Positions 9,903 through 60,285 are shown, counted from the stretch's first letter. The stretch: DNA of 64,000 nucleotides from Bacteroidales bacterium (GCA_017443175.1 JAFSOZ010000003.1:289892-353891), one strand, 5' to 3'. Program-made: numbers and translations. The notes: generated by a model from the letters alone, not told the origin.

Positions 9903-9910
9903 TATTTTTG
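9903..9910 (+). promoter_or_regulatory. -7 promoter box TATTTTTG for the 9977-14942 operon
   Basis: TAnnTTTG match 67 nt upstream of ATG 9977. It forms the left arm of an 11-bp perfect inverted repeat with 9942-9952. Confidence 0.5.
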
Positions 9911-9942
9911 CCGTCAATGAAATGTTGTTTTGATTTGAATTG

Positions 9943-9950
9943 CAAAAATA
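9943..9950 (-). promoter_or_regulatory. -7 promoter box TATTTTTG (minus strand) for proS-mazG-ompA-like operon
   Basis: Plus-strand caaaaata, about 70 nt upstream of proS ATG 9873. Confidence 0.45.
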
Positions 9951-9976
9951 CGAAAATAAGCCATAAGGAGGTCATT

Positions 9977-11329
9977 ATGAAAAAACAATTTTTATTTGTT
10001 CTAATCCTCGCAGCAATTTGTATAACATCTTGTCAAACAGGTTCTTTCGCCTACTACGACGACATCTACTCCTCATCGGGCGATGACCAGTACAAGATCA
10101 TGCGTGCGGAAAGCCAGAACAAGCCCGCAAACAATCCGAAGACCGTCACCTATTATGAGGAGATTCCGGCTCCGGATTCTATCTCCTATCAATACAATGA
10201 GGATGGAAGCATCGGCACCACCTATTATTATAATGAAGACGATTACTACGACTACTATTACACCTCCCGCCTGCGCCGCTTCCACACGGATGTATATAGC
10301 GGCTGGGGATATTACGATCCTTATTTCACCAATCTGTATTGGTATGACTACTGTCCATCAAACTGGGGCTTAAGCATTTACATGGGTTACAACTGGTGGT
10401 GGCCAAACTACTACTATCGTCCGTATTACTATAATTACGGCTGGTATGACTATGGTTTCCGCTATGGTTGGGGCTGGGATTATTACAATCCTTACTGGCA
10501 CAACCACGGATGGGGATGGTACCATCACCACAACTGGGCTATCGACTATTATCACAACAACTATGACCACAACCACTCGTTCTATTATGGTCATCGCAAC
10601 AGCATAGGACCCGTTTTGGGAAATCAAGGAAACGACGACAGAGGTATGCGTCCCAATTTCGATTACAGCAACAGTAACAACGACAACAATAATCACTACT
10701 CTGTTGTTTCCTCTTCACCAGCCTCATTCAGCGATCGTTACGATGGTTTAGCCGCATCTTACAGTCCTTCGGGGGGCGGCGGTTCCAGCTCTGGTTCCCA
10801 TAATCCTTCTTCAAGACCCACCACACAACCTACTCCTACTCCTACGCCTCGTCCTGCCAACACACCAGCCTCCGCAAGCACAAACCGGACAAATGTAAAC
10901 ACGAACAACAGTCGGACTTACGACAATAATCCGACCTCTAATTCAACCCCCAACACCCGTCCCAACTACAATTCTTCCAGAACTCCAACAAACACATCTG
11001 CCTCCACTTCAAGACCTTCGTCCAACAATAGCCGGAGCACTACTACCTGGACAACTCCGAGTTCCTCCACCCACGACCGTCAGCCGAGCAACTCACACAA
11101 CAGCCGGCCAGGTTCTTCCTACAATCAAAGCAACACTTCCAGACCAAGTTCAACTTACAATAACTCAAACTCTTCCAGATCTTCTTACAATAATTCTTCT
11201 TCCAGAAGCAATTACAGCTCCCCGTCCAGCAGCAGCAGCTCTTCTCGCAGCTCATACAGCGGATCCTCACGAAGCAGCAGTTCGTCATACAGCAGCAGCT
11301 CTTCACGCAGCAGCGGGGGAAGACGATAA
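9977..11329 (+). CDS. Lipoprotein of extreme low complexity: Tyr/Trp/His/Asn/Gly-rich core followed by a Ser/Thr/Asn/Pro/Arg-rich tail
   Basis: ATG 9977 gives MKKQFLFVLILAAICITSC, a lipobox with Cys. The core contains YYYRPYYYNYGWYDYGFRYGWGWDYYNPYWHNHGWGWYHHHNW. The tail ends ...SSSSSSSRSSYSGSSRSSSSSYSSSSSRSSGGRR. I recognise no family. Confidence 0.7.
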   Translation: MKKQFLFVLILAAICITSCQTGSFAYYDDIYSSSGDDQYKIMRAESQNKPANNPKTVTYYEEIPAPDSISYQYNEDGSIGTTYYYNEDDYYDYYYTSRLRRFHTDVYSGWGYYDPYFTNLYWYDYCPSNWGLSIYMGYNWWWPNYYYRPYYYNYGWYDYGFRYGWGWDYYNPYWHNHGWGWYHHHNWAIDYYHNNYDHNHSFYYGHRNSIGPVLGNQGNDDRGMRPNFDYSNSNNDNNNHYSVVSSSPASFSDRYDGLAASYSPSGGGGSSSGSHNPSSRPTTQPTPTPTPRPANTPASASTNRTNVNTNNSRTYDNNPTSNSTPNTRPNYNSSRTPTNTSASTSRPSSNNSRSTTTWTTPSSSTHDRQPSNSHNSRPGSSYNQSNTSRPSSTYNNSNSSRSSYNNSSSRSNYSSPSSSSSSSRSSYSGSSRSSSSSYSSSSSRSSGGRR

Positions 11330-11363
11330 ACAAAATGGTATTATCATCTTAAATCTCACAACA

Positions 11364-12869
11364 ATGAAAAGGATTTTAACCAGCATAGTAATGTTGTGCC
11401 TAATCAGTACAACTTTCGCACAAGGGGACTATGAGGCATTCCGTTTCTCCCAGATCGAGTACCAGGGAACGGCACGTTACATGGGTGCTGGCGGAGCATT
11501 CAGCGCCACAGGCGGAGAGTTTTCCGCCATTAGCGTAAATCCCGCAGCCATTGGACTTTACAAGCGCCACGAAGCTTCCATTACCCCATTATCTTTGGCC
11601 TTTACCAATAACAATTCCACCTATTACGGGGAACCCAGCTTTACTCAAAAAGCCAAATACACAGTTCCTCAATGCGGACTGGTCATCACCAACCACATCG
11701 ATAACTCCAATTGGAACTACTGGCATTTCGGTTTCGGGTACAACCGCATCATGGACTATAACAACACGTTCCGAGCCAATGCCCCTGTTAACAAATCTAT
11801 GGCTGACGTCATACTTCCACACGCCAACGGTATCGCTTACAATGCGCTTACTGGTGATGCTTCTCTGGCATGGAGCACTTGGCTGATAGACACAATACCT
11901 GGGACTAACAATCAGTATTATAGCCCTTTCACAGACGCAAAACTCAACAATGAAGCACTTGTAAAAACCTCCGGAGCCATGGATGAAATCAGCTTCTCCT
12001 TCGGCGGCAATTATTCTGACAAACTCTTCATCGGTGCCACTCTCGGCGTGCCCGTGCTCAGCTACAAAGAGGTCATTTCCTACGCCGAATACGCCACTGA
12101 TTCCGCCACCTTGGCCAAAGGAATCGCCTCTTTCCAAACCAACAGCGCTCAACAGAACTCCAGTGCCGGTATCAATTTGAAATTAGGCGTTATATATCAG
12201 CCTGTCAGTTTCCTGCGTTTAGGCGCATCTTTCCAAACTCCTTCCTATTTCTGGAAAGTCAAAGATTCGTACAGCCGGGATATGATCTCCTACTATACCA
12301 ACGGCAAGAATTCCGACACGTGGAGTTATGACAACAACTATCGCTTCTCGCTCACCACTCCGCTCAAATTCAATGTAAGTGCCGCATTCCTCATCAACAA
12401 AAGAGCATTCATATCCGCTGAATACGATTTCATCGACTACTCCATGGCCAAACTGTACGCCGACGACTACAATTTCAACACAGAAAATCAGGCTATTGAC
12501 AACAAATACGGCATCTGCAACACATTCAAACTCGGTGCCGAAGTAAACGTCACCTCCAAGTTCCTGTTGCGTGCCGGTTACAACTACAAAACCTCTCCTT
12601 ATAAAAACTTCAAATCCAGTTTCAACGGAAGCGCACATTATGGTTCTGTCGGCTTCGGAATCCGCACCAAATACGTCTTCTTTGATTTGGCCTACGTGCT
12701 GAAATACTCCAAAGACAGCTACTGGTTGTATCCCGATACGGTCCAATATCTTACCGCCAGCGAATACCAGAACCTTATTCAAAACAGTCTTCCCGACCGT
12801 TACACCTCTGCCATCTCCACCAGAGGCATATCCCACAGAATTGTCGCTACAATCGGTTGCAAATTCTAA
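11364..12869 (+). CDS. FadL/TodX/OMPP1-like outer-membrane beta-barrel channel
   Basis: Signal peptide ...TFAQ, then a FadL-type N-terminal hatch pattern: YEAFRFSQIEYQGTARYMGAGGAFSATGGEFSAISVNPAAIGLY (G-rich, NPA). The rest has alternating aromatic beta-strand character and ends in a terminal ...GCKF. Confidence 0.6.
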   Translation: MKRILTSIVMLCLISTTFAQGDYEAFRFSQIEYQGTARYMGAGGAFSATGGEFSAISVNPAAIGLYKRHEASITPLSLAFTNNNSTYYGEPSFTQKAKYTVPQCGLVITNHIDNSNWNYWHFGFGYNRIMDYNNTFRANAPVNKSMADVILPHANGIAYNALTGDASLAWSTWLIDTIPGTNNQYYSPFTDAKLNNEALVKTSGAMDEISFSFGGNYSDKLFIGATLGVPVLSYKEVISYAEYATDSATLAKGIASFQTNSAQQNSSAGINLKLGVIYQPVSFLRLGASFQTPSYFWKVKDSYSRDMISYYTNGKNSDTWSYDNNYRFSLTTPLKFNVSAAFLINKRAFISAEYDFIDYSMAKLYADDYNFNTENQAIDNKYGICNTFKLGAEVNVTSKFLLRAGYNYKTSPYKNFKSSFNGSAHYGSVGFGIRTKYVFFDLAYVLKYSKDSYWLYPDTVQYLTASEYQNLIQNSLPDRYTSAISTRGISHRIVATIGCKF

Positions 12870-17028: not shown

Positions 17029-19116
17029 TTAATGCAGAACAACAATTTTTTTCTTGTAGGCAACAGTGCCGTCTTGGACAATTAACGTATAGAACCCATC
17101 AGGCAATGTCCTGACATTCAAATCAACAGCTCCCAAAACATTCTTTTCCGCACTTACCACACGTCCAGTGACATCATATAACATCACCACGGCTTCATCC
17201 AAGTGAGCTGGAACTCGAACATGTATGCTGGAATATGCAGGATTGGGGTAAATTGTGATTTCGTTCTCATCAAATTCCTCCAAGCCATCCGGAGAATAAT
17301 CTGAAGTCCAAGACAGCTCAAAACCATCTCCGCACAAATAATTGTCAGTCACAAATTCAACGAATACATAATTGCTGAAGAAAAGCAAATCTCTCGGACT
17401 GTCATTTTCAGAAAAAAGTGCAATCTGAGGTTTCTCTGGGTCAGACCAATCATAGAATGCTAACCGGTCACCTGCAGCCAAATCCAATTCGGAAAAAGCA
17501 AAATTGATCATTGAAGCATGGGGCAGATAGAATCGCCAGCTGCAATTAGCGTTATATTTGTACGAAGTTGGTCCGCTTCCGTCGGTCAGTGTACCATGAT
17601 ACTGTTGAATCAGGTCATCATGACAGAAGTTTTCATGTCTGGCCATTCTGAAATCCAGACGCCATCCCTGTGCTGTCACAGAATCATCGCTTCTGAATGT
17701 GATATACAGACTGTCGGAATTAAAGTAATAGGTGGTTCCCTGCTCTACCGTTCCGGAGAGCGTCAACAAAAGATTGCCCTGATCAGGATGTCCATCCCAG
17801 AAGCTCAAAGAGTCATGATTTTCCTGGGTTTCAAACGATTTGATTTTTATCATAAATCGATATGCTGCACCTTCAGTGAGCACAAACATGCAATCCGAAT
17901 TGTTCTGATAATCGGATGGGCCGCTGCCATCCTCAATCGTTCCATCCGAACAATGGATTTCACGATTAGCGCACATGTACGGGTAGTTCTCATCCCCGGG
18001 ATAGATATTTCTGATAATCCGCTGGGAATGCTGAAAACCATTTATCACATTGGAATCGCTATCGCTTGCAGTCAAAACATAGTAACCATTGGAACTGCCG
18101 CCCCACCCGAAATTGAAATGATAGTAATCGTCATTTTCATAGCCATCGCACACAAAAGCGTGGCCGCCATCATCGCTATGTCCAGCATAATACAAAGGTC
18201 TTTTGGCATTCAAATCCTCTTTTATGAAATTCTTCCACTGGGCCAACGTATAATCGTAACGGCGCAGGAATTGACAATTAGAGGAATAGCCGAAATAAGA
18301 AGCAAGTGCGTCAGGCACGCTTTCAGAATAGGCGCCTGATCCATCGGCACCATACATCATATCGACAGCAGTGGCACAATGGAATATCAATTTGGCCACT
18401 TCATTGTTAAAATGGCTCAGCTGATCCGTCATCGCATCATAACAATAGGTCTGTTGAGCAAAATTCACATAATAATCGCCATAATCCGTATGGTTGGTAT
18501 GGGAGCCCCAACCATGTGACGGATATCGATAATAATACATGATCATAGCCATTGCCACGGCGACGCAGCCATTGGGTGTACGCTGGTCATAGCCAGAGGG
18601 TGCATTCGCATCATGCGGGGAATATGCATTATAATATTTGGTCTGATTCCAAAGAGCCGTCAACAAGGGAGCAACACTTTGCGAAGTTTGGTCTTTAATT
18701 CCAGAAGCAGTTCTCAGAGACTCCCAGGCTTGGACCACCTTTAACGATGGTGTAGTCCCATGTTCCCGTGCGTATTGGATTTGTTTTGCATAGGAATCCA
18801 GCCACAACAGGGCTGCGGGAGCGGCCTCCTCCATGTAAAACTGTTGGTCCAAGGAATATGCCAGCACCGGAAAAACAGCATCATCGGCTGATAACACGAT
18901 AAATCCCTTGGAAAAATTCGCCACCAGCAGCAGGGTATCGGATCCGTCAGTTACAAAATGACAATCCTTAAGTTCCAGCGCACAAGCACTTTTCTGTTTG
19001 AAAGCGTTCACAGCAGCAGAAACAAGTTGTTTTCTGCCAACAGGTTTGGCAAACAAGGAAACGGATAAACAAAACAGCAAGAGCAGCCCTATAGATTTCT
19101 TTGAATTTGTCAGCAT
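17029..19116 (-). CDS. Peptidase C10 (streptopain family) with I69-type propeptide, two CUB domains and a T9SS type-A C-terminal sorting domain
   Basis: Catalytic Cys context NGCVAVAMAMIMYYYRYP. Catalytic His context DGGHAFVCDGYENDDYYHFNFGWGG. CUB-like modules are CSDGTIEDGSGPSDYQNNSDC... and GTLTDGSGPTSYKYNANCSW.... The tail is ITIYPNPAYSSIHVRV...LPDGFYTLIV. I chose ATG 19116 because a -7 box overlaps the upstream ATG at 19143. Confidence 0.85.
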   Translation of the reverse strand: MLTNSKKSIGLLLLFCLSVSLFAKPVGRKQLVSAAVNAFKQKSACALELKDCHFVTDGSDTLLLVANFSKGFIVLSADDAVFPVLAYSLDQQFYMEEAAPAALLWLDSYAKQIQYAREHGTTPSLKVVQAWESLRTASGIKDQTSQSVAPLLTALWNQTKYYNAYSPHDANAPSGYDQRTPNGCVAVAMAMIMYYYRYPSHGWGSHTNHTDYGDYYVNFAQQTYCYDAMTDQLSHFNNEVAKLIFHCATAVDMMYGADGSGAYSESVPDALASYFGYSSNCQFLRRYDYTLAQWKNFIKEDLNAKRPLYYAGHSDDGGHAFVCDGYENDDYYHFNFGWGGSSNGYYVLTASDSDSNVINGFQHSQRIIRNIYPGDENYPYMCANREIHCSDGTIEDGSGPSDYQNNSDCMFVLTEGAAYRFMIKIKSFETQENHDSLSFWDGHPDQGNLLLTLSGTVEQGTTYYFNSDSLYITFRSDDSVTAQGWRLDFRMARHENFCHDDLIQQYHGTLTDGSGPTSYKYNANCSWRFYLPHASMINFAFSELDLAAGDRLAFYDWSDPEKPQIALFSENDSPRDLLFFSNYVFVEFVTDNYLCGDGFELSWTSDYSPDGLEEFDENEITIYPNPAYSSIHVRVPAHLDEAVVMLYDVTGRVVSAEKNVLGAVDLNVRTLPDGFYTLIVQDGTVAYKKKIVVLH

Positions 19117-19140
19117 TCGTTCAGATTTTTTAAAAGGCCG

Positions 19141-19148
19141 CAAATATA
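19141..19148 (-). promoter_or_regulatory. -7 promoter box TATATTTG (minus) for the C10 peptidase operon
   Basis: Plus-strand caaatata, immediately after the upstream terminator and about 25 nt upstream of ATG 19116. Confidence 0.5.
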
Positions 19149-46070: not shown

Positions 46071-46078
46071 TAATTTTG
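46071..46078 (+). promoter_or_regulatory. -7 promoter box TAATTTTG
   Basis: 25 nt upstream of ATG 46103. This argues for the MKRFLFF start. Confidence 0.5.
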
Positions 46079-46102
46079 CAGACGACAATAATCCCTTGCA
46101 TT

Positions 46103-48925
46103 ATGAAAAGATTTCTATTTTTTATTTTCATATTGTGTGTCAGCATAATGGTGCTTAGGGGCCAAACCACCGTTCTGATGGGTTCACAAGCCTCCGTAAC
46201 CAATTGCAATATATTAATTTACGACGATGGTGGTCTTACCGGCAATTACGCACCCAACGTCAACGAGACGCTCACCATTTTGTCCAACGACCCCAACAAT
46301 GGTTGTGTCATGGTGGAAATCACCGACTTAGACATTGATGTCTCCGACACGCTGACCATATACGACGGCGTGGGCACCAGCGGGCCGGTGCTCCACAAGA
46401 TCAACAACGACAACTACGATCCCACTGGCACCTTCCGCTATGCCGCCACCATACAGAACACCACGGGGGCCCTCACTTTGCAGTTCACCTCCGACGGGTC
46501 CGGCGAGGGCACCGGTTTCGAAATCCGCACCAGTTGCATCGCACCCTGCCAACGTATAACGCTCCACATCGACTCTGCCAACTGTTCCCATCTGCCTCAC
46601 CTCAACCCCGACGACGGCTATTATTACGTGGACGTATGCCCATACGACACCTTCTATTTCAGCGTGCGTGGCGAGTATCCGGACAATGACTTCAGCTATC
46701 ATCAAGCGGACAACACCACTACATTCCTTTGGGATTTCGATTTGGAGGAGATTGACAGCTTAGGCGGCAATTCCGTGAATTACTATTTCACGCCTGGCAG
46801 AGGGTACGATGTGTCCATCAGCGCTGCCGACCAGTCGCAATGTCTGTCGCTGATTCCCATCACTTTCCGCGTGCGCACGTCGAAGAACCCGATCCGCGAC
46901 ATCAGCCAGCTGCCACCCATCTGCACAGGCCAGCAGCTGGACCTGAGTGTGGGTTATGACCAGATTTCGAGTTTGCAGTTGGACTCTGTTGGCAGCGAGC
47001 AGATCACCTCTCTTGGAGTTACCGACACAGTGTTCCTGCCCGACGGCATCAGCTGTCCGCCCTACGGCTACTATTACCGCTCATACGTCAACTTCACCTC
47101 TTTTGCGCCCACCGCCACCATCACCAATGCCAACGACATCCTCTTTGTCCGCATCAAGATGGAGCATTCGGCCATCGAGGATATCCGTATCAAGCTGTTC
47201 TGTCCGAATGGCAGTTCATGCCGCATCGTGCCCGACTATCAGAACGACGGATGGGGCGGCATCACCCACTATTTCAGAACAAATCTGGGACGTGCCAACC
47301 GATTGCAGGAGGTAACCAGCTGCAATCCCGCCCAAAACCCCATGGGCGAAGCCTGGAACTATGTCTGGTCCAACAATACCACACTGGGTTACCAGTACGC
47401 AAGCGGCACCTACGGCTATTGCTATGAGCCCAGCAATATCCACTACATCTATAATCCCATGTGGGATGACGGCAGCTACTCCTACGTGATTGATTCAAGC
47501 AATGTGGCCAACATGACGCAGATCTACCACCCCAACCAGAGTTTTGCAGGCATGGTAGGCTGCCCGCTGAACGGCAACTGGTACATTGAAATCCAGGATT
47601 TGTGGACCAACGACAACGGATACCTGCACGAGTGGGAGATTGCGCTGGACCCGCATCTGCTGCCGCAGAACTGGTCATACGCCGTACACGTGGACACCAC
47701 ATACATAGTCGGCCCCGGAGCCAACAGCATGTACATCGTTCCCGATGTGTCCGGCGACATTTACTACACCGCCGTGGTGGTTGACGATTTCGGGTGCACC
47801 TACGACACCCTGATGCCTCTCCATGTGGTGCAGTCACCAAAACCCGAGTTGGGTGAGGATTTCCACATTTGCTACGGCGACCGGGCCATAATTACCAGCA
47901 ACTACAACGAGCCCAACACCACCTACGTGTGGAACACCGGCGACGACACCCCCGACATCCAAGTGGCATCAGCGGGGACTTACACGGTTTTCATAGCCAC
48001 TACGGACAGCACCAACAACCTGACCTGTTACGGCAGCGACACCATCAAAATAAGTGTGCTGGAAGTGCCCCATGCGGATTTTCGCATGGCAGACACCACC
48101 GGTTGCGCGCCCGCCACAGTCCGTTTGTTTGACGAGACCACCGTTGAAAACCCCAACTATTTGTACGAATGGATGATATTGCACGAGGACGGCTCTTTGG
48201 CATACGCCTCCCCCAACAAAAACCCGATAATCACCATTGAAGAACCCGGAATCTATACGGTAGGATTGCGCGTACACACACCCGAAGGCTGCTACGACTC
48301 ACTCTTTAAATGGAATTGCCTGCATATTTACCACCAACCGTTGGCCGAATTTGTTTCCGAACCTGAAATCTCCTTATACAGCGAAAGCAACGGCCTCATC
48401 CATTTCCACAATTACGCCGATTCCACCTTTGTGGAAAGCGGCGACATCAAACTGCGATGGGATTTCGGCGACGGCAGTTCCGACACGGCGGCTTTTTCAC
48501 CCGACCACACCTACGCTTCGTGGGGAGATTACGATGTCACCTTGAACCTTATAAGCAGCTTCGGGTGCTCCAGCAGCATCACACACACGGTGGTGATTGA
48601 GGACGACCTTGTCTTCCCGAATGTCATCACCCCCAACGGCGATGGGACCAACGACTGCTTTGCCATCCAGAACCTGAACATCCGCTACAACCCGGAGGAT
48701 CCCGACGAATACCGGTCCAACGAGCTGTACATCTATGACCGATGGGGGAAGATGGTCTATCATGCAAAAAACTACGACACCTACGCGGTTAACGGGGAGA
48801 TTGTCAGGGGAACGCAATATTTCGACGCTTCCCAGCTCAGCGACGGCGTGTATTACTATACATTTTATTATAAAGGAAAAGTGAAAACCGTTGATTATCA
48901 CGGCAGCATTACCGTGATAAGATAA
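46103..48925 (+). CDS. T9SS type-B (gliding-motility-associated) C-terminal-domain surface protein with CUB-like, proprotein-convertase P-domain-like and PKD-like modules
   Basis: Signal peptide MKRFLFFIFILCVSIMVLRGQ. CUB-like module: NILIYDDGGLTGNYAPNVNETLTI...TIYDG...LQFTSDGSGEGTGFEI. P-domain-like module: VRIKMEHSAIEDIRIKLFCPNGSS...GNWYIEIQDLWTNDNGYLHEWEIAL. Type-B CTD: VFPNVITPNGDGTNDCFAIQNL...YIYDRWGKMVY. Confidence 0.85.
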   Translation: MKRFLFFIFILCVSIMVLRGQTTVLMGSQASVTNCNILIYDDGGLTGNYAPNVNETLTILSNDPNNGCVMVEITDLDIDVSDTLTIYDGVGTSGPVLHKINNDNYDPTGTFRYAATIQNTTGALTLQFTSDGSGEGTGFEIRTSCIAPCQRITLHIDSANCSHLPHLNPDDGYYYVDVCPYDTFYFSVRGEYPDNDFSYHQADNTTTFLWDFDLEEIDSLGGNSVNYYFTPGRGYDVSISAADQSQCLSLIPITFRVRTSKNPIRDISQLPPICTGQQLDLSVGYDQISSLQLDSVGSEQITSLGVTDTVFLPDGISCPPYGYYYRSYVNFTSFAPTATITNANDILFVRIKMEHSAIEDIRIKLFCPNGSSCRIVPDYQNDGWGGITHYFRTNLGRANRLQEVTSCNPAQNPMGEAWNYVWSNNTTLGYQYASGTYGYCYEPSNIHYIYNPMWDDGSYSYVIDSSNVANMTQIYHPNQSFAGMVGCPLNGNWYIEIQDLWTNDNGYLHEWEIALDPHLLPQNWSYAVHVDTTYIVGPGANSMYIVPDVSGDIYYTAVVVDDFGCTYDTLMPLHVVQSPKPELGEDFHICYGDRAIITSNYNEPNTTYVWNTGDDTPDIQVASAGTYTVFIATTDSTNNLTCYGSDTIKISVLEVPHADFRMADTTGCAPATVRLFDETTVENPNYLYEWMILHEDGSLAYASPNKNPIITIEEPGIYTVGLRVHTPEGCYDSLFKWNCLHIYHQPLAEFVSEPEISLYSESNGLIHFHNYADSTFVESGDIKLRWDFGDGSSDTAAFSPDHTYASWGDYDVTLNLISSFGCSSSITHTVVIEDDLVFPNVITPNGDGTNDCFAIQNLNIRYNPEDPDEYRSNELYIYDRWGKMVYHAKNYDTYAVNGEIVRGTQYFDASQLSDGVYYYTFYYKGKVKTVDYHGSITVIR

Positions 48926-51377: not shown

Positions 51378-51385
51378 TATTTTTG
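51378..51385 (+). promoter_or_regulatory. -7 promoter box TATTTTTG for tRNA-Asn
   Basis: 30 nt upstream of the tRNA 5' end. Confidence 0.5.
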
Positions 51386-51414
51386 CAGCCGTTAACCAAA
51401 GCGGTTAAGCACCC

Positions 51415-51488
51415 GCTTCCTTAGCTCAGTTGGTTAGAGCATCTGACTGTTAATCAGAGGGTCCAAGGTTCAAGTCCTTGAGGGAGCG
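51415..51488 (+). tRNA. tRNA-Asn (anticodon GUU)
   Basis: Hand-folded. Acceptor GCTTCCT/AGGGAGC, D arm GCTC-AGTTGGTTA-GAGC, anticodon stem TCTGA/TCAGA with loop CTGTTAA, and T arm CAAGG-TTCAAGT-CCTTG. Confidence 0.9.
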
Positions 51489-51500
51489 CAAAACGGAAAA

Positions 51501-51534
51501 GCACTTGCGAAGATATTTGCGAGTGCTTTTTTTT
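51501..51534 (+). terminator. Rho-independent terminator after tRNA-Asn
   Basis: gcacttgc-gaagatattt-gcgagtgc (8 bp including one G.U) followed by T8. Confidence 0.7.
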
Positions 51535-51709
51535 GTATGCACTAACAAACGGACTAAAATTTCCTCGCTCATGCGGCATATTCTTCCCCGCACAGAGTGC
51601 AAACACACGCATTTTTCCATATACTTTTTTTTACACATGTAATCTATTGAAAATTAAACAATAAAATAAAAAAAGACAATGGCAGTGTTTTTTATATGTA
51701 AAAAAATGC

Positions 51710-51717
51710 TATTTTTG
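51710..51717 (+). promoter_or_regulatory. -7 promoter box TATTTTTG for the 2180-aa gene
   Basis: 69 nt upstream of ATG 51786. Confidence 0.5.
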
Positions 51718-51785
51718 CCAGATTAATGTTACTTTGTAAAAAAATATACGAGAAAATTTAAAATAATTAATAAAATAAACCACTT

Positions 51786-54700
51786 ATGAAAAAATTTCTA
51801 ACTTTAACCTTGACTGCGATTCTGTGTTGCCTGTTGACAGGCGTGGCACAGGCGCAAAGCGTTGAATCTAAGACTCAAACGTACAACTCTGGTTCCGGTA
51901 CATGGACCGCTCCCACAGGAGCCTGGAAAGTCACCAAGCTTGAGGCTTGGGGCGGCGGCGGCGGCGGCGGAAATTGCAGTAATAGATACCGGGTTGCTTC
52001 TGGCGGCGGCGGCGGCGCTTATGCTAAAACCACAACAGAGACATCTGTCATTCCAGGTGATCGATTGCCATTTTCGGTTGGTACTGGTGGCGCCGGTGGC
52101 GCAAATGGAAACGATTCTTGGATGAAAGCCAACGCTAACAGCACGGATTACTTGGTTAAAGCAAGTGGTGGTAGCAGTGGTACTTACGTAGTAAGACCAA
52201 CCTCTAATGGTACGGTAACAGCAGCTGGGGGAGCTGGTGGTTCAGTATCTACATCTTTTGGTACAGAAGAAACCATTGCTGGGGGCAATGGTTCCGATGC
52301 AACCATAACAAGAAGTGGCACCTATTCCTATTCTCAGAGTGGTGCGGGTGGAAAAGGTGCTAATGGCGGCAACGGAGGAAATTCTGTATCATCAAATTAT
52401 GCGGCCGGTAATGCAGGAACCGCTCCTGGCGGTGGTGGTAGTGGGGCCCGAAATACCAACAGAAATGGATACAGTTATAATGGTGGCGCCGGAGGCTCCG
52501 GTCGTGTGACAATCACCTACGAAATCCTCACCCTTACCGTGACACTGGACCAGAATTACTTCGGTGCCCCTGAAGCTGAAACTTTTGACATACTTTATTA
52601 TGACACATGCGGCAATAACCTTACAACTCCCGACCGTGGAGCACGTTACCTTTTCCTTGGCTGGTTTACCGAGCCCTCGGGCGGCACGCAAGTGACTGCA
52701 ACCGACACATGCAAATCCACCAGCAATGTTACGCTGTACGCACACTGGGCATACGCTGGCGCCATTACGACCATCACCGAAACTACAGACCCTTGCGGCA
52801 ATTATGAAGTAACGCAAGATACCGCAGCTGTGGGAGAAGTCGTCTATTCCTGGGAATACGCCTTCAACAATGGCAATTGGCAAGCCATCCCCAATGCCAA
52901 CACGGCTGCATTGACCCAAGAATACATGAATCTCAACCAAATGGGTACTTACCAGTTCCGCCGTTACATTACCGGCAACAGCCAGACAGTGATTTCCGGA
53001 GGAATTTACTCTGTTAAAGTAAAGGGTTTGAGCACTGCCGGTGCCATTGCTTCCAGCAGCAGATACTCATGTACAACAGGCTCCGACACGATCAAAAATG
53101 TAACGGAAGCAACACCGGAATACAGCACCAGTACGGTAACCTACATTTGGAAATACAGCAAGGATGGAGGTGCAGAAACCACTATTGACAACAGCAATTC
53201 CGCTTCCTACATCGCACAAAACCTGACAGCCGGTACATACGTATTCAAACGCTATGCCACGATAGGCTGCGCTGAGCCGGTAGTTTCCGCAGGTGAAGAT
53301 ACATTGATTGTGATTGATTTAAACAACTATACACCTACGGTTTCTGCCAACTACACCCAATTATGCGAGGGAGGTACATTAGAGATCGAAAGCGACAATT
53401 ATGAGCTTTCTGATATTGACCAAAATTATAACTATCCTGCATTCAAATGGATGATTTCTGAAGATGGCGACAATTACATTCAGGTTCCGGATATGTATGG
53501 AAAGACGCTTTCCCTGGTGATCAACAATGACGGCGACTACAAATTCTTTCTGAATTTGACCTACTTTGGCCTGCCTGCTTGTGTGATTTCCACCGACACC
53601 ACTGACATCACCGTGGTGGACGATCCTACTATCGGAGCTCCCAGCATAAGTGCCACTGAACCTATATGCCCCAACAGCGAAATAACAATGGAGGCTGCCA
53701 CTATTCAAGGTGGTGTGGGTATCTATACCTACACTTGGGAATTTCTGCCTGCTGGCGGAGATGAAACCACTGATTGGGTAGATACAGCTGCCTCTCAGGC
53801 TACCTACAGCAGCAACGCCACTGGCAGTATCCTTACGGCCAGCAACTTCCTGGTAACCGGTGATGTGAAATACAGAACCAAAATCAGCAATACACAAGGT
53901 TGCGATTTCACCAGCGATCCTGCTGCTTTGAGCATCAAAGAACTGCCCATTCCTACTGTAAGCCAAGCTATGGATGTATGTCCAGCTCCTGGCGACACTG
54001 CTTTCACCTTCATGGTGAGCACCACCGATCAGAGTTACGAATTAAGCTGGTTTGCTGATGCCACTTCCACCACTGCCATTCCAGCTCCGGAAACATCTCT
54101 CGCCAGTGAGGGTGTGATTACCTATTACGTGGCCCAACGCAACCCGGTTGACGACTGTTTAAGTGCCCGCGTACCTGTTACGTTGACTATTACCTACACC
54201 GCACACCTCGGCCACACCGGTGGCGACACAGTGCAGGTTGTATGCCAGAACAGCGCCATGGAGGCCATCACGTTCGACCATTCCGGAGACTGCGCCCCGC
54301 AAGTAACCTGGAATCCCAGCCAGCCCGCTGGTGTGACCGTGACGACGGAGAACGGCATCACCACCATTGCCGGTACTCCTGAAGAGGCCGGAAACTTTAC
54401 ATTCAAAGTGGAGTTGCATCCTGATGCCCAAACGGTTTGCGCTGCTCCCAACGTTTTCACCGGCAGAATTCAGGTAAACACTATATATAATGTAACGGTT
54501 GACACTACAATTTGTAGCGGCAGTGTTACGATTAGTGACAACAATGGCCACAGCTACACCTTCAGCGAGAGCGGCAATTACACAAGAACCTTGGAGGCAG
54601 TGACCGGCTGCGACAGCGTGGTGACATTGAACCTCTATGTGCATGAATGGAATCAGTTCGGATTCAAGGAAAATGAAGAGCTGATTGCCGGTTGGACCTC

Positions 54701-57700
54701 ATTCAGCAGCGTTAATTCTCCTATTAATGCCGATGCAGGTTCCGTTTCCGGATCCCGTATTACATATAGCGGATGGAACGGCAGCAACGCCAGAAGAGAC
54801 AATCTCTCTTCAACCTCAATGGTGAGCGCTTCAGGTTATTCATTAGGTTTAGTAAATGGTTCATCAAGCAGTAATTTAAATAATGGTAAAACCATTACTA
54901 TAACGACTTCAACTAAAGATTTTGGTAATCTGAAACTGCATTTTGATTACGGTGCTGAAAGATATCAGTCTGTTACTGGAATTTATTCATCAAATGACAA
55001 AGCATTCACGGATATTACATATAGGGTTGCAACCACGACGGGTAGTACTGACTTGCCCTCTACTCATATTGAATTGCAGCAAAGTACCCTTACAACCGGC
55101 TCTGTGGATATTGATTTGTCTGCCTCTGAGGATCTTAGAAATCTGATTGAGAATCAAGACAATATTACAATAACGTTGACTTTTAGTGGAGCAGCATACT
55201 CGGTTGTTCCCTTCGTTACTCATACACAATATTTACGCCTTGACAACATCTGCATATCCGGTACCAAGGCCATAGACGAAATAGAATTATCGAGAGCTGA
55301 CGAGACAGAGCCTTGTTGTACTAATCAGCCGTTGACGTTGGTAGCTACTGCACCGTACGTTAACACCAATGCAGAGCCGGCAGTTGAAACGCCTATTATC
55401 TACAAATGGGAAAGAATTGTGGGAGGTGTGAGTACCGTTTTGGATGAAACGTCCTACGTTTTGACCGACAACGATGTGCAAGAGGGTGATTATCAATATG
55501 TGGTAAGTGTAGGCGAGGCTCCTTGCGGCAAGTCCGACACCATCAACGTACATGGTATCAAGCCAGCCTATCGTTTGGACATTGTCCGTCATGGTACGGT
55601 CTGTTCCAACAAAGTGGATCAAATCAGTAACATCGATTTTACTGATTGCGAATATGAGGATGGCATGTTCATCGTAACGCCTTCTGCTAATGAGATGCGT
55701 ACACCGGGCATTTATGAATGCCAGTTGAGCGTCCCTACCACGGAGAATCCTTGCGACAGTGTCATCACCCTGATGCTGGAAGTACTCAAGGCATTTGACA
55801 CTACGATTGTGGCCAACATCTGTTTGGGAGAAACCTACAACCAATATGGCTTTAACATTACTCCTACCGTAGAGGGCGTCACCTACCATACTTCTGACCC
55901 GACTTGGACTTGTTCCACGGGTTGCGACAGTATTTATCGTCTGACGTTGATTACAAGTAGCGTTAAACAGACTTTGAGCTCAGAAACGGATGTGACATTG
56001 GCTGCTTGGCCTATGGATCATGGAATCAACAAATTCGTGCCTGCGTGCGGTGTGCGTACTGCCAATAGTTCATTTATGGTATATGGTGGTGAACACATGC
56101 CTTCCTTTACCAATACAACAGGACATGCACCCTCTTCTGACTACTGCTACGCTGCCGCATCAAGTAATGGCGCTCTGAATTGGGCAAATTTAAGCAGTGA
56201 CTGTAGTGGTTTATTGAAAACCCCCACCTATATAGATTACAGCGGTGCTTACTTTGAAATCAGGATCAACCCATACGACTACGAGAATCTTAAGTTGAAA
56301 TTTGATTACTCACGCCAGAATGCCTCCAGCAATGGCCAGGCCTTTAACAGAGTGAACTATTATTATAAGTTCAGCGAAACGGGCAGTTATACTTCATTAG
56401 GCTATGCGAATATTAACTCTACCAATTGGGATTCTCAAACGTTGGATTTCTCTTCCGCTGATGCTATTGACCATAATGTGATGTATCTGAAGGTTGAATT
56501 TACAGGAGGTTCTGCCGGTAACACGCAAAATTGCGGAACAGCACAAGGTTCAAAATACCTTCCTAGCTATATCACGGTGGATAATGTGAAGATTACGGGT
56601 GACCGTCCGGCAAGAGCCTCATTGGATGGCAATGCACAGACCTGCAGCGAGACATACGTGTGCGAAGGCAATGAAGTGGTATTCAACTGCCAGGGCGATG
56701 ACAACTACTTCAAGTTCTATGTGGTGGATGAAACCGCCAATGACACTACCGCCTTCAATGGTAGCCTCTCCCTTGTCAAAACCCCGACCCAATCTTCAAC
56801 CTATAAGATCGTGGGTGTAGAACAGACCACCATGTGCGACACTGTATGGGGTCCGTTTAACGTGGAAGTGGTAAAGAACCCGACCATCACCGCCTCACAA
56901 GGTGAACTCAACCTGGGTATTTGCGGTCACGATATGGTCAACAACGTGTTGCTCATTGAGAACGCCACCGGCTACACCTTCTCTTGGCTGACGGATAGCT
57001 TGGGCTTAGCTCATACCGAAACCACAGGCCATCAAGTGGATACCATCACCATCACCGGCACCTTGTCCGAAGGTGGTTACGTTGGATACAGAATCATAGC
57101 TAATCCTGACGACCGTTGTTCCAGTGTTAACGTAAGAGAAGAGGGTTCCATCACGGTTCGTAGAGTGCCCACATTCGAGCAGACCATCGGCAAAGACACG
57201 GTGTGCGAGGGCGCTGATATGCAGTTTGTGGTGGACACCACCGGTTGCAACTTCTTCCAGATCGCCCCGGATCAACGCATCAAGTGGTACACCAACAATG
57301 TTGTTCTGGGTAATGAAGACACACTGAACTACGTGGCAGAAGAGGCCACCCACTCCGCACGCCACTACATCATGGTCAACCAGAACGGTTGTACCACGAT
57401 AGATTCCATGGACATTGTAGTCTATAAATTCGATGCAGACACGCTGCGCCTCAAAGAAAGCCACTATGTGCTCAACTATGGTGACAACTATCTGATAGCT
57501 GATTCAGTTCAAAAACCCGACCTGATGCACAATGGTGAAGCTATAGCTGAAAAGAATATCCAATCCATCACTATCCGCGGCATTACAGACAACAAGATTC
57601 CTGTCAACAGCATCACTGACTTGAGCGCCACCATTATATGGGACGTTGTGGATATGTGCGGCAACACACACAGCAGAGAGCAGGTTCTCACCTTCGAACT

Positions 57701-58328
57701 TCCTCCTTGCGGCGACGAGGATCATTTCTTTGTCACCGATGTGGACGGCAATGAGTATCACACCGTGAGAATGGGCTGGAACTGCTGGATGCGTGAGAAT
57801 CTGAAGACGCTGAACTATGCAGACAATACGCCGGTAGCCAAGGCTATGGGCTATGTAAGCAGCGAGTTCCCGAATGCTGACACCACAGCAAAAACCTTCG
57901 GTCGTCTCTACACCTGGTACTCCAGCATGGGCATAGAGGAAGGTTCCAACACCATGCCGACCGTCAACGAATTCGGCCACGTGCAAGGTGTCTGCCCTGA
58001 AGGTTGGTTCGTGCCCGCTCCTGAGCAGTTCAACACCATGTCAGAAATTGACATGGACAATCTCCGTGCTCCCGAATATTGGCTGGATGGCGGTGGCAAC
58101 AACAGCACCAAATTCTCCATCCTGCCGGGCGGCGCATACAACAGCGACAAAGACCGTTTCGAGAACATCCTCGGTAACGCCTACTTCTGGAGCACAGACC
58201 TCACAGGTAGTGCACAACCCAGAGCATACATGGCCGACTGCAACTGCTACATGTGGCAGATTTTGGATAGTTCCCCGAAACACGGATTCAGCGTCCGTTG
58301 CGTGAAGGAGAAAGTGAAAAACGAGTAA
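51786..58328 (+). CDS. 2180-aa secreted multidomain surface protein: N-terminal glycine-rich (PF12810-like) domain, Listeria-Bacteroides repeat, many Ig-like repeats, two MAM/CBM-like modules, C-terminal FISUMP (Fibrobacter succinogenes major paralogous) domain
   Basis: Signal peptide [24 protein letters not shown]. Gly-rich domain: [29 protein letters not shown]...[11 protein letters not shown]...[16 protein letters not shown]. Listeria-Bacteroides repeat: [20 protein letters not shown]...VTLYAHW. FISUMP: [24 protein letters not shown]...GRLYTWYS...[13 protein letters not shown]...NAYFWST...GFSVRCVKE. No T9SS CTD at the end. Confidence 0.9.
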
Positions 58329-58402: not shown

Positions 58403-58410
58403 TATCTTTG
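58403..58410 (+). promoter_or_regulatory. -7 promoter box TATCTTTG for rho
   Basis: 100 nt upstream of ATG 58510. It lies inside the longer track ORF, so the 58408 start is rejected. Confidence 0.5.
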
Positions 58411-58509
58411 CGCGTCTTTTGCAGGAGGAACAACAACCTGTCCATATCCTCTACGGGTGGTCCTCCATATTCAGCAAGGAAAATCCTATTCTACAAATTC
58501 TTAAAAACA

Positions 58510-60285
58510 ATGTCAGAGTCCGTTGAAAATAGACCTAAGAGACGAAGAATTAGTACGGCAAAACCTATACCCGCAGGTTCTTCAAACCAAAAAAAAGTCA
58601 CTGAAAAAGTAATATTGCCGGAAAAGAAACCCGTGGTATTCATCAAGGAGCGTCACGAGCAGCCGGTGAACGAGGTTGCCGCAACCCCTTCCGTCCAAGA
58701 GGAAGTGGTGATGATGGCCAATCCCATTGCGCCTGCCGAGAAACCCAAGCGCGGTCGCAAGAAAAAAACAGAGGAACCTGTAGCCGCACCCGTGGAGAAT
58801 GTCCCGCAAGAAGCAAGTGCAATTCAAAGTACAGAAGCTGAGCCTGAAATTCCCGTAAAGAAAAAACGCGGACGCCCTAAGAAGAACCCCGCTCCTGACG
58901 TTGCCCCAGCCATAGAAGCCAAGGAAACGGAGGTGAAAGAAGAAACCGCTGAAAAAACCGAGCCCAAGGAGCAGGAGACCAAACCGGCCAACGATGAAAC
59001 CAATCCTCAAAAAAACAATTTCAAGCAGAAAAAACAGGACAAACATAATAAACCTGATAACCAGTCCAAGACTGCCGAGCAGAAACCCACTACCCCACCC
59101 GCTCCTGCCAAGACCCAGGAGGAACTGTTCCTTGAGGAGCAGATGCGCATACTGGCCGACTCGCAATATGACGGTGCGGTATCCGCCGAAGGCGTATTGG
59201 AAATCACCAGCGACAACTGCGGTTTCCTGCGTTCCTCTGACTACAACTACCTTACCTCCCCCGACGATATCTACGTTTCCATGTCCCAGATCAAACTGTT
59301 CGGTTTGAAGAACGGGGACACCATTTATGGCCAGATTCGTCCGCCAAAAGCCGGTGAGAAATACTTCCCGCTGACGAAAGTGGAGAAAATCAACGGATGC
59401 AATCCTGAGGACATTCGCGACCGTATTCCGTTTGACTATCTCACGCCGATGTTTCCGGATGAGAAAATCAACCTCACCGGACATCCAGGCTGCAACATCT
59501 CCACGCGCGTCATCGACCTGTTCGCGCCCATCGGCAAGGGCCAGCGTGGCCTGATTGTGGCCCAGCCCAAAACGGGTAAGACGGTATTGCTGAAAGATGT
59601 GGCCAACGCCATCGCTTACAACCATCCCGAGATCTACCTTATCGTGCTGCTCATCGACGAGCGTCCTGAGGAGGTTACGGACATGCAGCGCAGTGTGAAC
59701 GCGGAGGTCATTTCATCGACCTTCGACGAGCCCGCCGAGCGCCACGTGAAGATCGCCAACATGGTTCTGGAAAAAGCCAAACGCATGGTGGAATGTGGCC
59801 ATGACGTCTGCATTCTGTTGGATTCTATCACCCGTCTGGCACGTGCGTTCAACACCATCGCACCGGCATCCGGCAAGGTGCTCTCCGGCGGTGTGGAAGC
59901 CAATGCCCTGCAGAAGCCCAAACGTTTCTTCGGTGCTGCCCGTAACGTGGAGAACGGCGGCTCACTCACCATCATCTCCACCGCCCTCATCGACACCGGC
60001 TCCCGCATGGACGAGGTGATCTTCGAGGAGTTCAAGGGCACCGGCAACATGGAGTTGCAACTCGACCGCAAGCTTTCCAACAAGCGCATCTACCCGGCGG
60101 TTGACTTAGTAGCCTCCAGCACGCGCCGCGACGATCTCCTGCAATCACCTGCCACCTTGCAGAAAGTGTGGATCCTGCGCAACCATATCGCCGACATGAC
60201 CACCATCGAGGCCATGACCTTCATCAAGGAGAACATGGAGGATACGAAGGATAATGAGGAGTTCTTGAGTGCGATGAATAGCTAG
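58510..60285 (+). CDS. rho: Transcription termination factor Rho with a roughly 235-aa Lys/Glu/Pro/Ala-rich N-terminal insertion
   Basis: The C-terminal two thirds are canonical Rho: [17 protein letters not shown]..., [15 protein letters not shown] Walker A and [10 protein letters not shown]. The N-terminus [16 protein letters not shown]... is low complexity. Confidence 0.93.

Follow-up and report, generated by a model that had tools for sequence, protein, structure and literature searches.

The locus and its product

The window analysed here is a 64,000-nucleotide stretch of a Bacteroidales genome (GCA_017443175.1 JAFSOZ010000003.1:289892-353891), and genome coverage amounts to this one 64-kb window. 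At 51786..58328 of its plus strand lies a gene for a protein of 2180 amino acids (aa) with a glycine-rich head at its N-terminus and a FISUMP domain at its C-terminus. The open reading frame (ORF) is uninterrupted, starts with an ATG and includes its stop codon. As the stop-to-stop frame opens at 51774, an N-terminal extension is impossible and the annotated ATG marks the only possible start region. The product is 100% identical to a deposited protein (P0001) that NCBI names 'MAG: InlB B-repeat-containing protein [Bacteroidales bacterium]', MAG being a metagenome-assembled genome. The most informative feature of this protein, missed by the original prediction for the locus, is an exchangeable, hypervariable head.

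A tRNA-Asn gene (51415-51489) precedes the gene and rho follows it; upstream, on the opposite strand, there is a yitT-family gene. Exact and near copies occur in ruminant gut and rumen metagenomes and in Bacteroidales MAGs of water buffalo and cattle. About 57 ortholog clusters of 47-100% identity have been collected; most of these proteins are 2163-2203 aa long, a few being partial or reaching 2334 aa. All of them carry the head and/or the FISUMP tail, and they stem from rumen and ruminant-gut MAGs. A 60%-identity ortholog (locus L004) lies in the same yitT-rho interval. Comparison of the ortholog loci revealed no neighbour gene that is conserved across lineages. Since the neighbours differ between lineages, the gene stands alone, without a conserved partner, chaperone or transporter gene alongside.

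A glycine-rich head of the phage-tip class

Glycine makes up 28.5% of residues 55-240, as compared to 7.4% of the rest of the protein; any other 186-aa stretch of the protein stays at or below 10.2%, and the other long reading frames of the window at or below 17%. The original prediction described short strings separated by Gly runs after the signal peptide and attributed them to an ALK/LTK-type domain of family PF12810. The strings are all there, within aa 55-246, and the domain matches bear out the proposed coordinates of both head (51930-52530) and tail (57727-58310). The family assignment has to be changed: PF12810 gives no match at E<=1 in the 2180-aa protein, and the matching family is PF21722 (Gly_rich_2). 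It covers aa 35-245 and profile positions 3-225 of 226, an end-to-end match, with 48.5 bits against a cut-off of 24.3, and is found in 22 of 22 orthologs. Of the two other families that had been named alongside PF12810, PF09479 and TIGR02145, both score above their cut-offs.

An alignment of 45 head domains, taken from orthologs and from distant PF21722 proteins (alignment A1), served as input to AlphaFold2. The head model has a mean predicted local distance difference test (pLDDT) value of 97.3, a predicted template-modelling score (pTM) of 0.91 and no residue below a pLDDT of 70, quite unlike a purely disordered Gly-rich region. Strands occupy the two ends of the domain and separate the Gly runs; the runs themselves have pLDDT values above 90 and are assigned neither helix nor strand by DSSP. 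By analogy with its homologs, the head would adopt the geometry of a packed polyglycine-II/polyproline-II (PPII) bundle.

A Foldseek search of the PDB returns the tail fibre of cyanophage Pam3 as the best match (7ypx_A, E 2.8e-9, template-modelling (TM) score 0.59; 7yfw_a, TM 0.64; 24-26% identity), followed by tail-tip chains of mycobacteriophage Bxb1 at E about 2e-6. Ectodomain entries of ALK/LTK (7nx3, 7mzy, 7lir, 7n00, 7nx1) are matched with a probability of mostly 0.84-0.96, E-values of 4e-3 to 3e-2 and a TM score of only about 0.3. ALK/LTK may belong to the same structural class as the head, but they are not its closest relatives, phage tips being much closer. Among the predicted viral structures of BFVD, 213 match the head at E<=1e-3, with TM scores up to 0.74 and 28-35% identity, and several of them are annotated as tail fibre proteins.

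The A1 profile leads in the same direction. With hmmsearch against PDB sequences it retrieves the Pam3 fibre (E 1e-9) and RemZ of Flavobacterium johnsoniae (E 1.2e-18), the latter over residues 2-203 of the deposited chain, which correspond to the mature N-terminus. Among 1.84 billion representatives it matches 37,955 representative clusters at E<=1e-3, a list whose weak end is possibly inflated by composition, and 10,977 at E<=1e-10; Gly_rich_2 heads are often present in several copies per protein. A homolog search with the head only was swamped by glycine words (21 short matches) and was replaced by full-length and exhaustive representative searches. A tblastn search of the head against 50,697 GenBank phage records gave no match, low-complexity masking probably being part of the cause. 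Taken as modelled, the head is best described as a folded Gly-rich domain of a large, little-studied family whose solved relatives are phage receptor-binding tips, and ALK/LTK would be its remote structural cousins.

The best structural class for the head thus comprises Pam3 gp24 (7YPX/7YFW), Bxb1 gp33 (9D93) and, more distantly, S16 gp38 (6F45). In Pam3 gp24, the strands of a TNF-like sandwich continue into a glycine-rich domain; the protein is similar to S16 gp38, and the fibre unit is reported to superpose on Caenorhabditis elegans ALK (PMC9608196). PPII bundles have been identified in 7YFW and in Bxb1 gp33 (9D93) and gp29 (PMC13243192). The Pam3 fibre and the head have in common a conserved Gly stem and hypervariable segments between the Gly motifs. 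Phage fibres, however, possess a helical trimerisation shaft and occur in a phage context, whereas the head directly follows a signal peptide and the gene has housekeeping neighbours.

By sequence profile, RemZ (Fjoh_0803) appears to be the closest experimentally handled cellular protein to the head. This RemA homologue is a type A substrate of the type IX secretion system (T9SS); its C-terminal domain (CTD) binds PorV/SprA and is the only resolved part (PMC10994853; 8GL8/8GLM/8GLN). Like the 2180-aa protein, it is a large Bacteroidota adhesin-type protein with a match to the head profile at its mature N-terminus, but a type A CTD takes the place of FISUMP at its C-terminus. Most of the PF21722 members seen likewise end in a T9SS CTD and not in FISUMP.

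The TG region of ALK/LTK (7LIR, 7LRZ, 7N00, 7NX1, 7NX3) would share with the head the class of a β-sandwich with a polyglycine-II bundle, the link between the two passing through Pam3 gp24. The ALK/LTK domain is followed by an EGF-like module, a transmembrane segment and a kinase. In the 2180-aa protein, Flg_new and Ig-like modules come after the head and none of these receptor domains is present; the type of ligand is presumably different.

Exchange of the head between alleles

Across 54 orthologs, head residues 81-200 are the least conserved part of the protein, with a mean identity to the window sequence of 0.36-0.39; every 40-aa block downstream of the head has a mean identity of 0.44-0.89, mostly at least 0.53. 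Head and body do not vary together. Proteins P0040 and P0041 share 98% identity over the body as opposed to 33% over the head; for P0017 and P0026, head identity is 84% and body identity 58%. Single-linkage clustering of the orthologs yields about eight multi-member head types and five singleton heads.

The block structure is also visible at the DNA level. Between the window and its counterpart L010, the flanks are 97-100% identical (97-98% upstream of the block) and the gene outside the head block is mostly 90-100% identical (86-100% just after it), as compared to 42-73% in the 100-nt bins of 51,800-52,500. Identity changes sharply at two points, where the signal-peptide codons end and at the ITY(E/Q)ILTLTV junction. 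A second, independent same-species pair, L011 and L012, from a lineage 55% identical to the window protein, diverges in the same head block and is 99-100% identical over most of the remaining gene and the flanks. Overall, the DNA identity of same-species alleles is 97-100% outside the head block, save for a few shorter divergent patches of the gene, and 42-65% within it. Since this block structure recurs in independent assemblies, it is unlikely that the head alleles are assembly chimeras.

Differences between head alleles include indels and the replacement of whole segments. No second copy of the head or of FISUMP is present in the window, and no template-like direct repeat matching the gene was found in 40000-64000. 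For these reasons, the variability is attributed to allelic replacement by homologous recombination and not to a diversity-generating retroelement (DGR), which was rejected as a candidate for the window, the conserved tail being a further ground. As read from the alignments, discrete head types replace one another by recombination, within species as well as across lineages.

Secondary divergent patches are seen at 54,000-54,200 and 55,800-55,900 between the window and L010, and at gene nt ~3000-3700, in module A, between L011 and L012. They show 72-90% DNA identity in alleles that are otherwise 98-100% identical. The module A patch suggests a second exchanged or fast-evolving binding module.

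FISUMP in place of a sorting signal

The original prediction of a FISUMP tail is well supported. PF09603 matches aa 1994-2174 (79.9 bits against 33.9, E 3.8e-22) and TIGR02145 aa 1987-2174 (77.9 bits against 41.65, E 1.5e-21). The domain contains five invariant cysteines (C2000, C2070, C2152, C2154, C2172), and its identity across orthologs is 0.65-0.74. Searches of PDB sequences with the whole protein and with the FISUMP tail yielded nothing meaningful, no solved structure matching the tail. A homolog search with the tail only returned six small proteins, uninformative on architecture.

The N-terminus is that of an exported, non-lipidated protein. The A-x-A|Q signal peptidase I site is kept in nearly all orthologs with a complete N-terminus. 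A lipobox is absent: in every ortholog, the Cys residues in the h-region of the signal peptide follow a bulky residue (L, I or F), and the lipoprotein reading was rejected on this basis. The T9SS CTD families (PF18962, PF13585, TIGR04183/04131) give no match at E<=1 in the 2180-aa protein, with Pfam and NCBIfam models, nor at E<=0.1 in any of 22 orthologs. The absence of both signals had been noticed from the sequence beforehand, as had the fact that other large proteins of the window differ in this respect. Two of them do: the secreted proteins encoded at 17029-19143 and 46076-48925 carry a type A (Por_Secre_tail) and a type B (CHU_C) CTD, respectively, and the organism therefore possesses a T9SS.

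The architecture had also been called unusual, and the family comparison agrees. Of the 144 top representatives with a Gly_rich_2 head, a single one ends in FISUMP, a 5079-aa relative of the same family; many others have CTD-like C-termini. The metagenomic representative P0151 (5079 aa) contains several head copies and a FISUMP tail, and its body is 38% identical to aa 418-1688 of the window protein. The head-to-FISUMP plan thus reaches beyond the 2180-aa family.

FISUMP is related to the DUF1566/C-type-lectin class of DGR targets, and lipoprotein signals are frequent among its members (PMC5758913). In Fibrobacter, it has been suggested to be an attachment module or a cohesin analogue (PMC4704652). 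The window tail resembles the FISUMP proteins of Fibrobacter and Bacteroidota in its full-length domain, its conserved cysteines and its extracytoplasmic signal. It differs from them in three respects. The lipoprotein signal, frequent in the family and not obligatory, is replaced by one of signal peptidase I type; the FISUMP proteins of ortholog locus L005 are only 236 and 261 aa long, whereas here the domain caps a 2180-aa non-lipoprotein; and FISUMP is a DGR target elsewhere, but here the tail is conserved and the window holds no repeat matching it.

Literature searches on FISUMP, PF21722 and Gly_rich_2 returned no treatment of these proteins and no mention of the family accession or name, and a review of PPII-bundle domains lists only phage, ALK/LTK, antifreeze, Obg-type and carboxylase examples. 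The protein has a database entry and each of its domain families a Pfam or NCBIfam model, so that no new category is involved. What is absent from the searched literature is the presence of phage-tip-type Gly-rich heads on cellular Bacteroidota adhesins, the cassette-like polymorphism of the head, and the replacement of the T9SS CTD by FISUMP.

Architecture of the stalk

Between head and tail, the protein is built of a Listeria-Bacteroides repeat, Ig-like modules and two jelly rolls (Table 1).

Table 1. Positions of the gene's features in the window, with the residues that they cover
Feature	Position	Strand	Remarks
−7 promoter box match, TATTTTTG	51710..51717	+	69 nt upstream of the ATG; read from sequence
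Signal peptide, aa 1-23	51786..51854	+	Signal peptidase I site VAQA|QS; mature N-terminus Gln
Head, aa 24-249 (predicted TNF-like β-sandwich with inserted Gly-rich, polyglycine-II type bundle)	51855..52532	+	Gly_rich_2; putative recognition tip
Exchangeable allelic cassette, ~650 bp	51860..52500	+	Lies between the conserved signal-peptide codons and the ITY(E/Q)ILTLTV junction
Listeria-Bacteroides repeat (InlB B-type, Flg_new), aa 251-320	52536..52745	+	PF09479, 32 bits against 27
Stalk 1, aa 321-954 (Cys-containing Ig/PKD-like and short C..G..Y..GCDS..L.L.V modules)	52746..54647	+	Ig_7 and K319L-like PKD in orthologs; invariant Cys pairs
Module A, aa ~955-1160 (first CBM/MAM-type jelly roll)	54648..55265	+	Homology to module B
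Conserved Cys-rich Ig-like and GCDS modules, aa 1161-1392	55266..55961	+	Invariant Cys
Module B, aa 1393-1612 (second jelly roll)	55962..56621	+	Structure model and Foldseek
Stalk 2, aa 1613-1986 (Ig-like and HYR-like Cys-containing modules)	56622..57743	+	Invariant Cys pattern
FISUMP (Fib_succ_major), aa 1987-2174	57744..58307	+	Ends 6 residues before the stop

The Listeria-Bacteroides repeat and the Ig-like modules are those of the original prediction, and both are recovered with family models. PF09479, above its cut-off in the window protein, is found in 21 of 22 orthologs; TIGR02543 stays below its cut-off in the 2180-aa protein (17 against 20.95). Ig_7 (PF19081, a 'CHU_C associated' Ig-like family) is found in 20 of the 22 orthologs and a K319L-like PKD domain (PF22352) in nine.

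Modules A and B, each ~210 aa long, are homologous according to hhalign (probability 98%, E 7e-14). This kinship is visible only by profile-profile comparison, self-BLAST of the protein detecting no internal repeats. The module B model (pLDDT 87.1, pTM 0.85) matches in Foldseek the Eph ligand-binding domain, MAM domains, CBM4/11/16/22/35 and the K2 adhesin domain of gingipain, with E-values of 2e-6 to 1e-4. Module A is the second most variable region of the protein (ortholog identity 0.46-0.62), and identity rises to 0.78-0.87 over aa 1201-1400, in the Cys-rich segment that separates the two jelly rolls. In stalk 2, HYR_4C is matched weakly in one ortholog, and the last module before FISUMP is shared with a 967-aa paralog. 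The many cysteines that are invariant across orthologs would fit disulfide-bonded extracytoplasmic modules.

To note, BppU_N, the N-terminal domain of the phage baseplate upper protein, is matched weakly in 5 of 22 orthologs (alignment A3; best E 7e-5); the region behind these matches was not located in eight orthologs that were rescanned.

Proposed function

All functional statements on the 2180-aa protein are predictions. The reading that we favour, with modest confidence, is that of a giant stand-alone, Sec-exported adhesin-like protein, multivalent, surface-located or extracellular, with a diversifying recognition tip. The protein would be exported by Sec and cleaved by signal peptidase I, and the head would form the distal, target-recognising tip, because the C-terminus of its relatives, the CTD, is cell-proximal and the first head lies at most 80 residues from the N-terminus in 98 of 134 representatives. 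By comparison with homologs, the variable positions would gather at the tip of the head. Its diversification would alter the binding range, the target being the surface of another microbe, a glycan or a particle; alternatively, it would help the cell to escape an agent directed at the tip. The jelly rolls and FISUMP would add lectin-type avidity. FISUMP may also hold the protein non-covalently on the surface of its producer, because it occupies the position of the CTD in relatives such as RemZ.

Several points weigh against this proposal. Profile scores on Gly-rich sequence are biased by composition, the RemZ match having a score of 71.2 and a bias of 77.1. Phage tips are C-terminal, trimeric and chaperone-dependent, while the head is N-terminal and has no chaperone gene adjacent to it. 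Position and conservation are the two grounds on which FISUMP may be regarded as an anchor. Surface display is assumed for a protein that has neither CTD, lipobox nor partner gene, and a periplasmic or released form is possible. Finally, localisation and target binding are predictions, for this protein as for any cellular Gly_rich_2 head.

One alternative, rather improbable though with an appreciable chance of being right, is that the protein is a lectin, released or associated with outer-membrane vesicles, that leaves the cell by vesiculation or another route and cross-links particles or cells, with FISUMP being a ligand binder and not an anchor. This would agree with the absence of CTD, lipobox and membrane segment, with the status of FISUMP as a C-type-lectin-related ligand-binding scaffold and variable target domain of DGRs (PMC5758913), and with the attachment role suggested in Fibrobacter (PMC4704652). 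But the tail is far more conserved than the head (0.65-0.74 against 0.36-0.39), a better fit to a constant partner, and the head-to-tail polarity is that of the T9SS-anchored relatives.

The favoured reading has a stronger, joint form, in which the head is a strain-specific recognition module exchanged like phage host-range cassettes and FISUMP, standing in for the T9SS CTD, is at the same time a hitherto unrecognised module for surface retention or export. We consider it unlikely that both parts hold together. Under the first part, the head locus would amount to a polymorphic receptor on the cell surface that determines the partners, prey or particles bound by a strain, or to a decoy or escape locus against phages sharing the fold.

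The protein could also be a non-canonical T9SS substrate, FISUMP or its last strand being recognised by PorV/SprA. The same window encodes type A and type B T9SS substrates, Ig_7, typical of T9SS cargo, is present in most orthologs, the head-bearing relatives are T9SS cargo, and the C-terminus of the 2180-aa protein is basic. This route nevertheless seems decidedly doubtful. Some Bacteroides species have FISUMP proteins but no T9SS. None of the 22 orthologs matches a CTD model, and FISUMP is not the Ig-like β-sandwich seen bound in the translocon (PMC10994853).

A role in self or partner recognition, in which head types would confer type-specific cell-cell recognition in the manner of polymorphic kin-recognition receptors, is very unlikely. 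Head types are indeed discrete and form no continuum, they replace one another within species, and the same types are found on diverged bodies. Yet such a pattern would arise in any tip whose selection is diversifying or frequency-dependent, be it for target range or for escape from phages or protists.

It is highly improbable that the head binds a small secreted cytokine-like protein, as do ALK/LTK. These receptors provide the only non-phage PDB matches with a Foldseek E-value below 0.1, and the Pam3 fibre unit is reported to be superposable on C. elegans ALK (PMC9608196); but the TM score is low, PF12810 is unmatched, the EGF-like module, the membrane segment and the kinase are all missing, and phage and adhesin relatives are far closer. 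The least credible origin, a prophage tail fibre gene or DGR-generated variability, has in its favour the phage-fibre-like fold of the head and the place of FISUMP in a known class of DGR targets, and is contradicted by the housekeeping context (tRNA-Asn, YitT, Rho), on which a prophage tail fibre was rejected for the window, by the signal peptide and Ig-like stalks, by the lack of a second domain copy in the window and of a template-repeat-like direct repeat within 24 kb, by variation that resides in the head and not in FISUMP and proceeds by indels and whole-block replacement, and by the empty tblastn search of the phage records.

Under the favoured reading of an exported adhesin with an exchangeable tip, the locus is of wider relevance. 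Polyglycine-II bundle domains have been described in a handful of proteins, namely phage gp38-type tips, ALK/LTK, antifreeze proteins and a few others, and here a phage/ALK-type glycine-rich unit is predicted to head giant cellular adhesins of gut and rumen Bacteroidota; bacteria appear to shuffle this tip as phages shuffle their receptor-binding tips. Head types defined by sequence would give concrete access to the binding specificity of individual strains in a rumen lineage that is uncultured. The family also raises a question of secretion, as a 2180-aa extracytoplasmic protein of a T9SS organism bears FISUMP exactly where its relatives have a sorting signal. With the answer, FISUMP, abundant in both Fibrobacter and Bacteroidota but lacking an established function, would acquire a role.

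Neighbouring genes and related loci

The TATTTTTG box upstream of the ATG (Table 1) is likely to be the gene's own promoter, judging from its sequence; TAnnTTTG is the consensus of the Bacteroidota/Bacteroides −7 promoter box. A sigma-70 scan showed no enrichment. Directly upstream of the gene, the tRNA-Asn(GTT) region (51415-51530, plus strand) has a TATTTTTG box of its own at about 51379-51386, and a hairpin followed by a T-run lies 3' of the tRNA at about 51499-51535. Downstream, the rho ORF (58408-60285, plus strand) is long, encoding 591-625 aa depending on the start codon chosen, with an N-terminal extension preceding the RNA-binding domain at aa 261-334.

The type A CTD protein of the window (17029-19143, minus strand) is 704 aa long and combines a Spi inhibitor prodomain, a C10 (streptopain-type) peptidase and two CUB-domain stretches, CUB domains being uncommon in bacteria. 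An outer-membrane protein of FadL/Toluene_X type is encoded at 11364-12869 (plus strand) and adjoins a 473-aa ORF devoid of Pfam matches (region 9908-12869); another ORF without a Pfam match, of 632 aa, lies at 3052-4950 (plus strand). The type B CTD protein (46076-48925, plus strand; 949 aa) possesses a P-proprotein-like domain and PKD domains, and is kept beside the locus in L001, L004 and L010.

In L004, the orientation of the long gene with respect to yitT and rho is inverted. It is adjoined by the gene of the 967-aa paralog (L004:4646-7549, minus strand), which repeats the plan of the long protein with a short stalk. A signal peptidase I signal and a Gly_rich_2 head (aa 50-289) are followed by Ig-like modules, and the FISUMP tail at aa 773-964 is about 40% identical to that of the long family. 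At L006, which encodes a 54%-identity relative of 2334 aa (P0055), an IS200-type Y1 transposase is found upstream (6878-7333) and a 2042-aa Cleaved_Adhesin/MAM/fn3 protein with a type A CTD downstream (L006:15246-21374).

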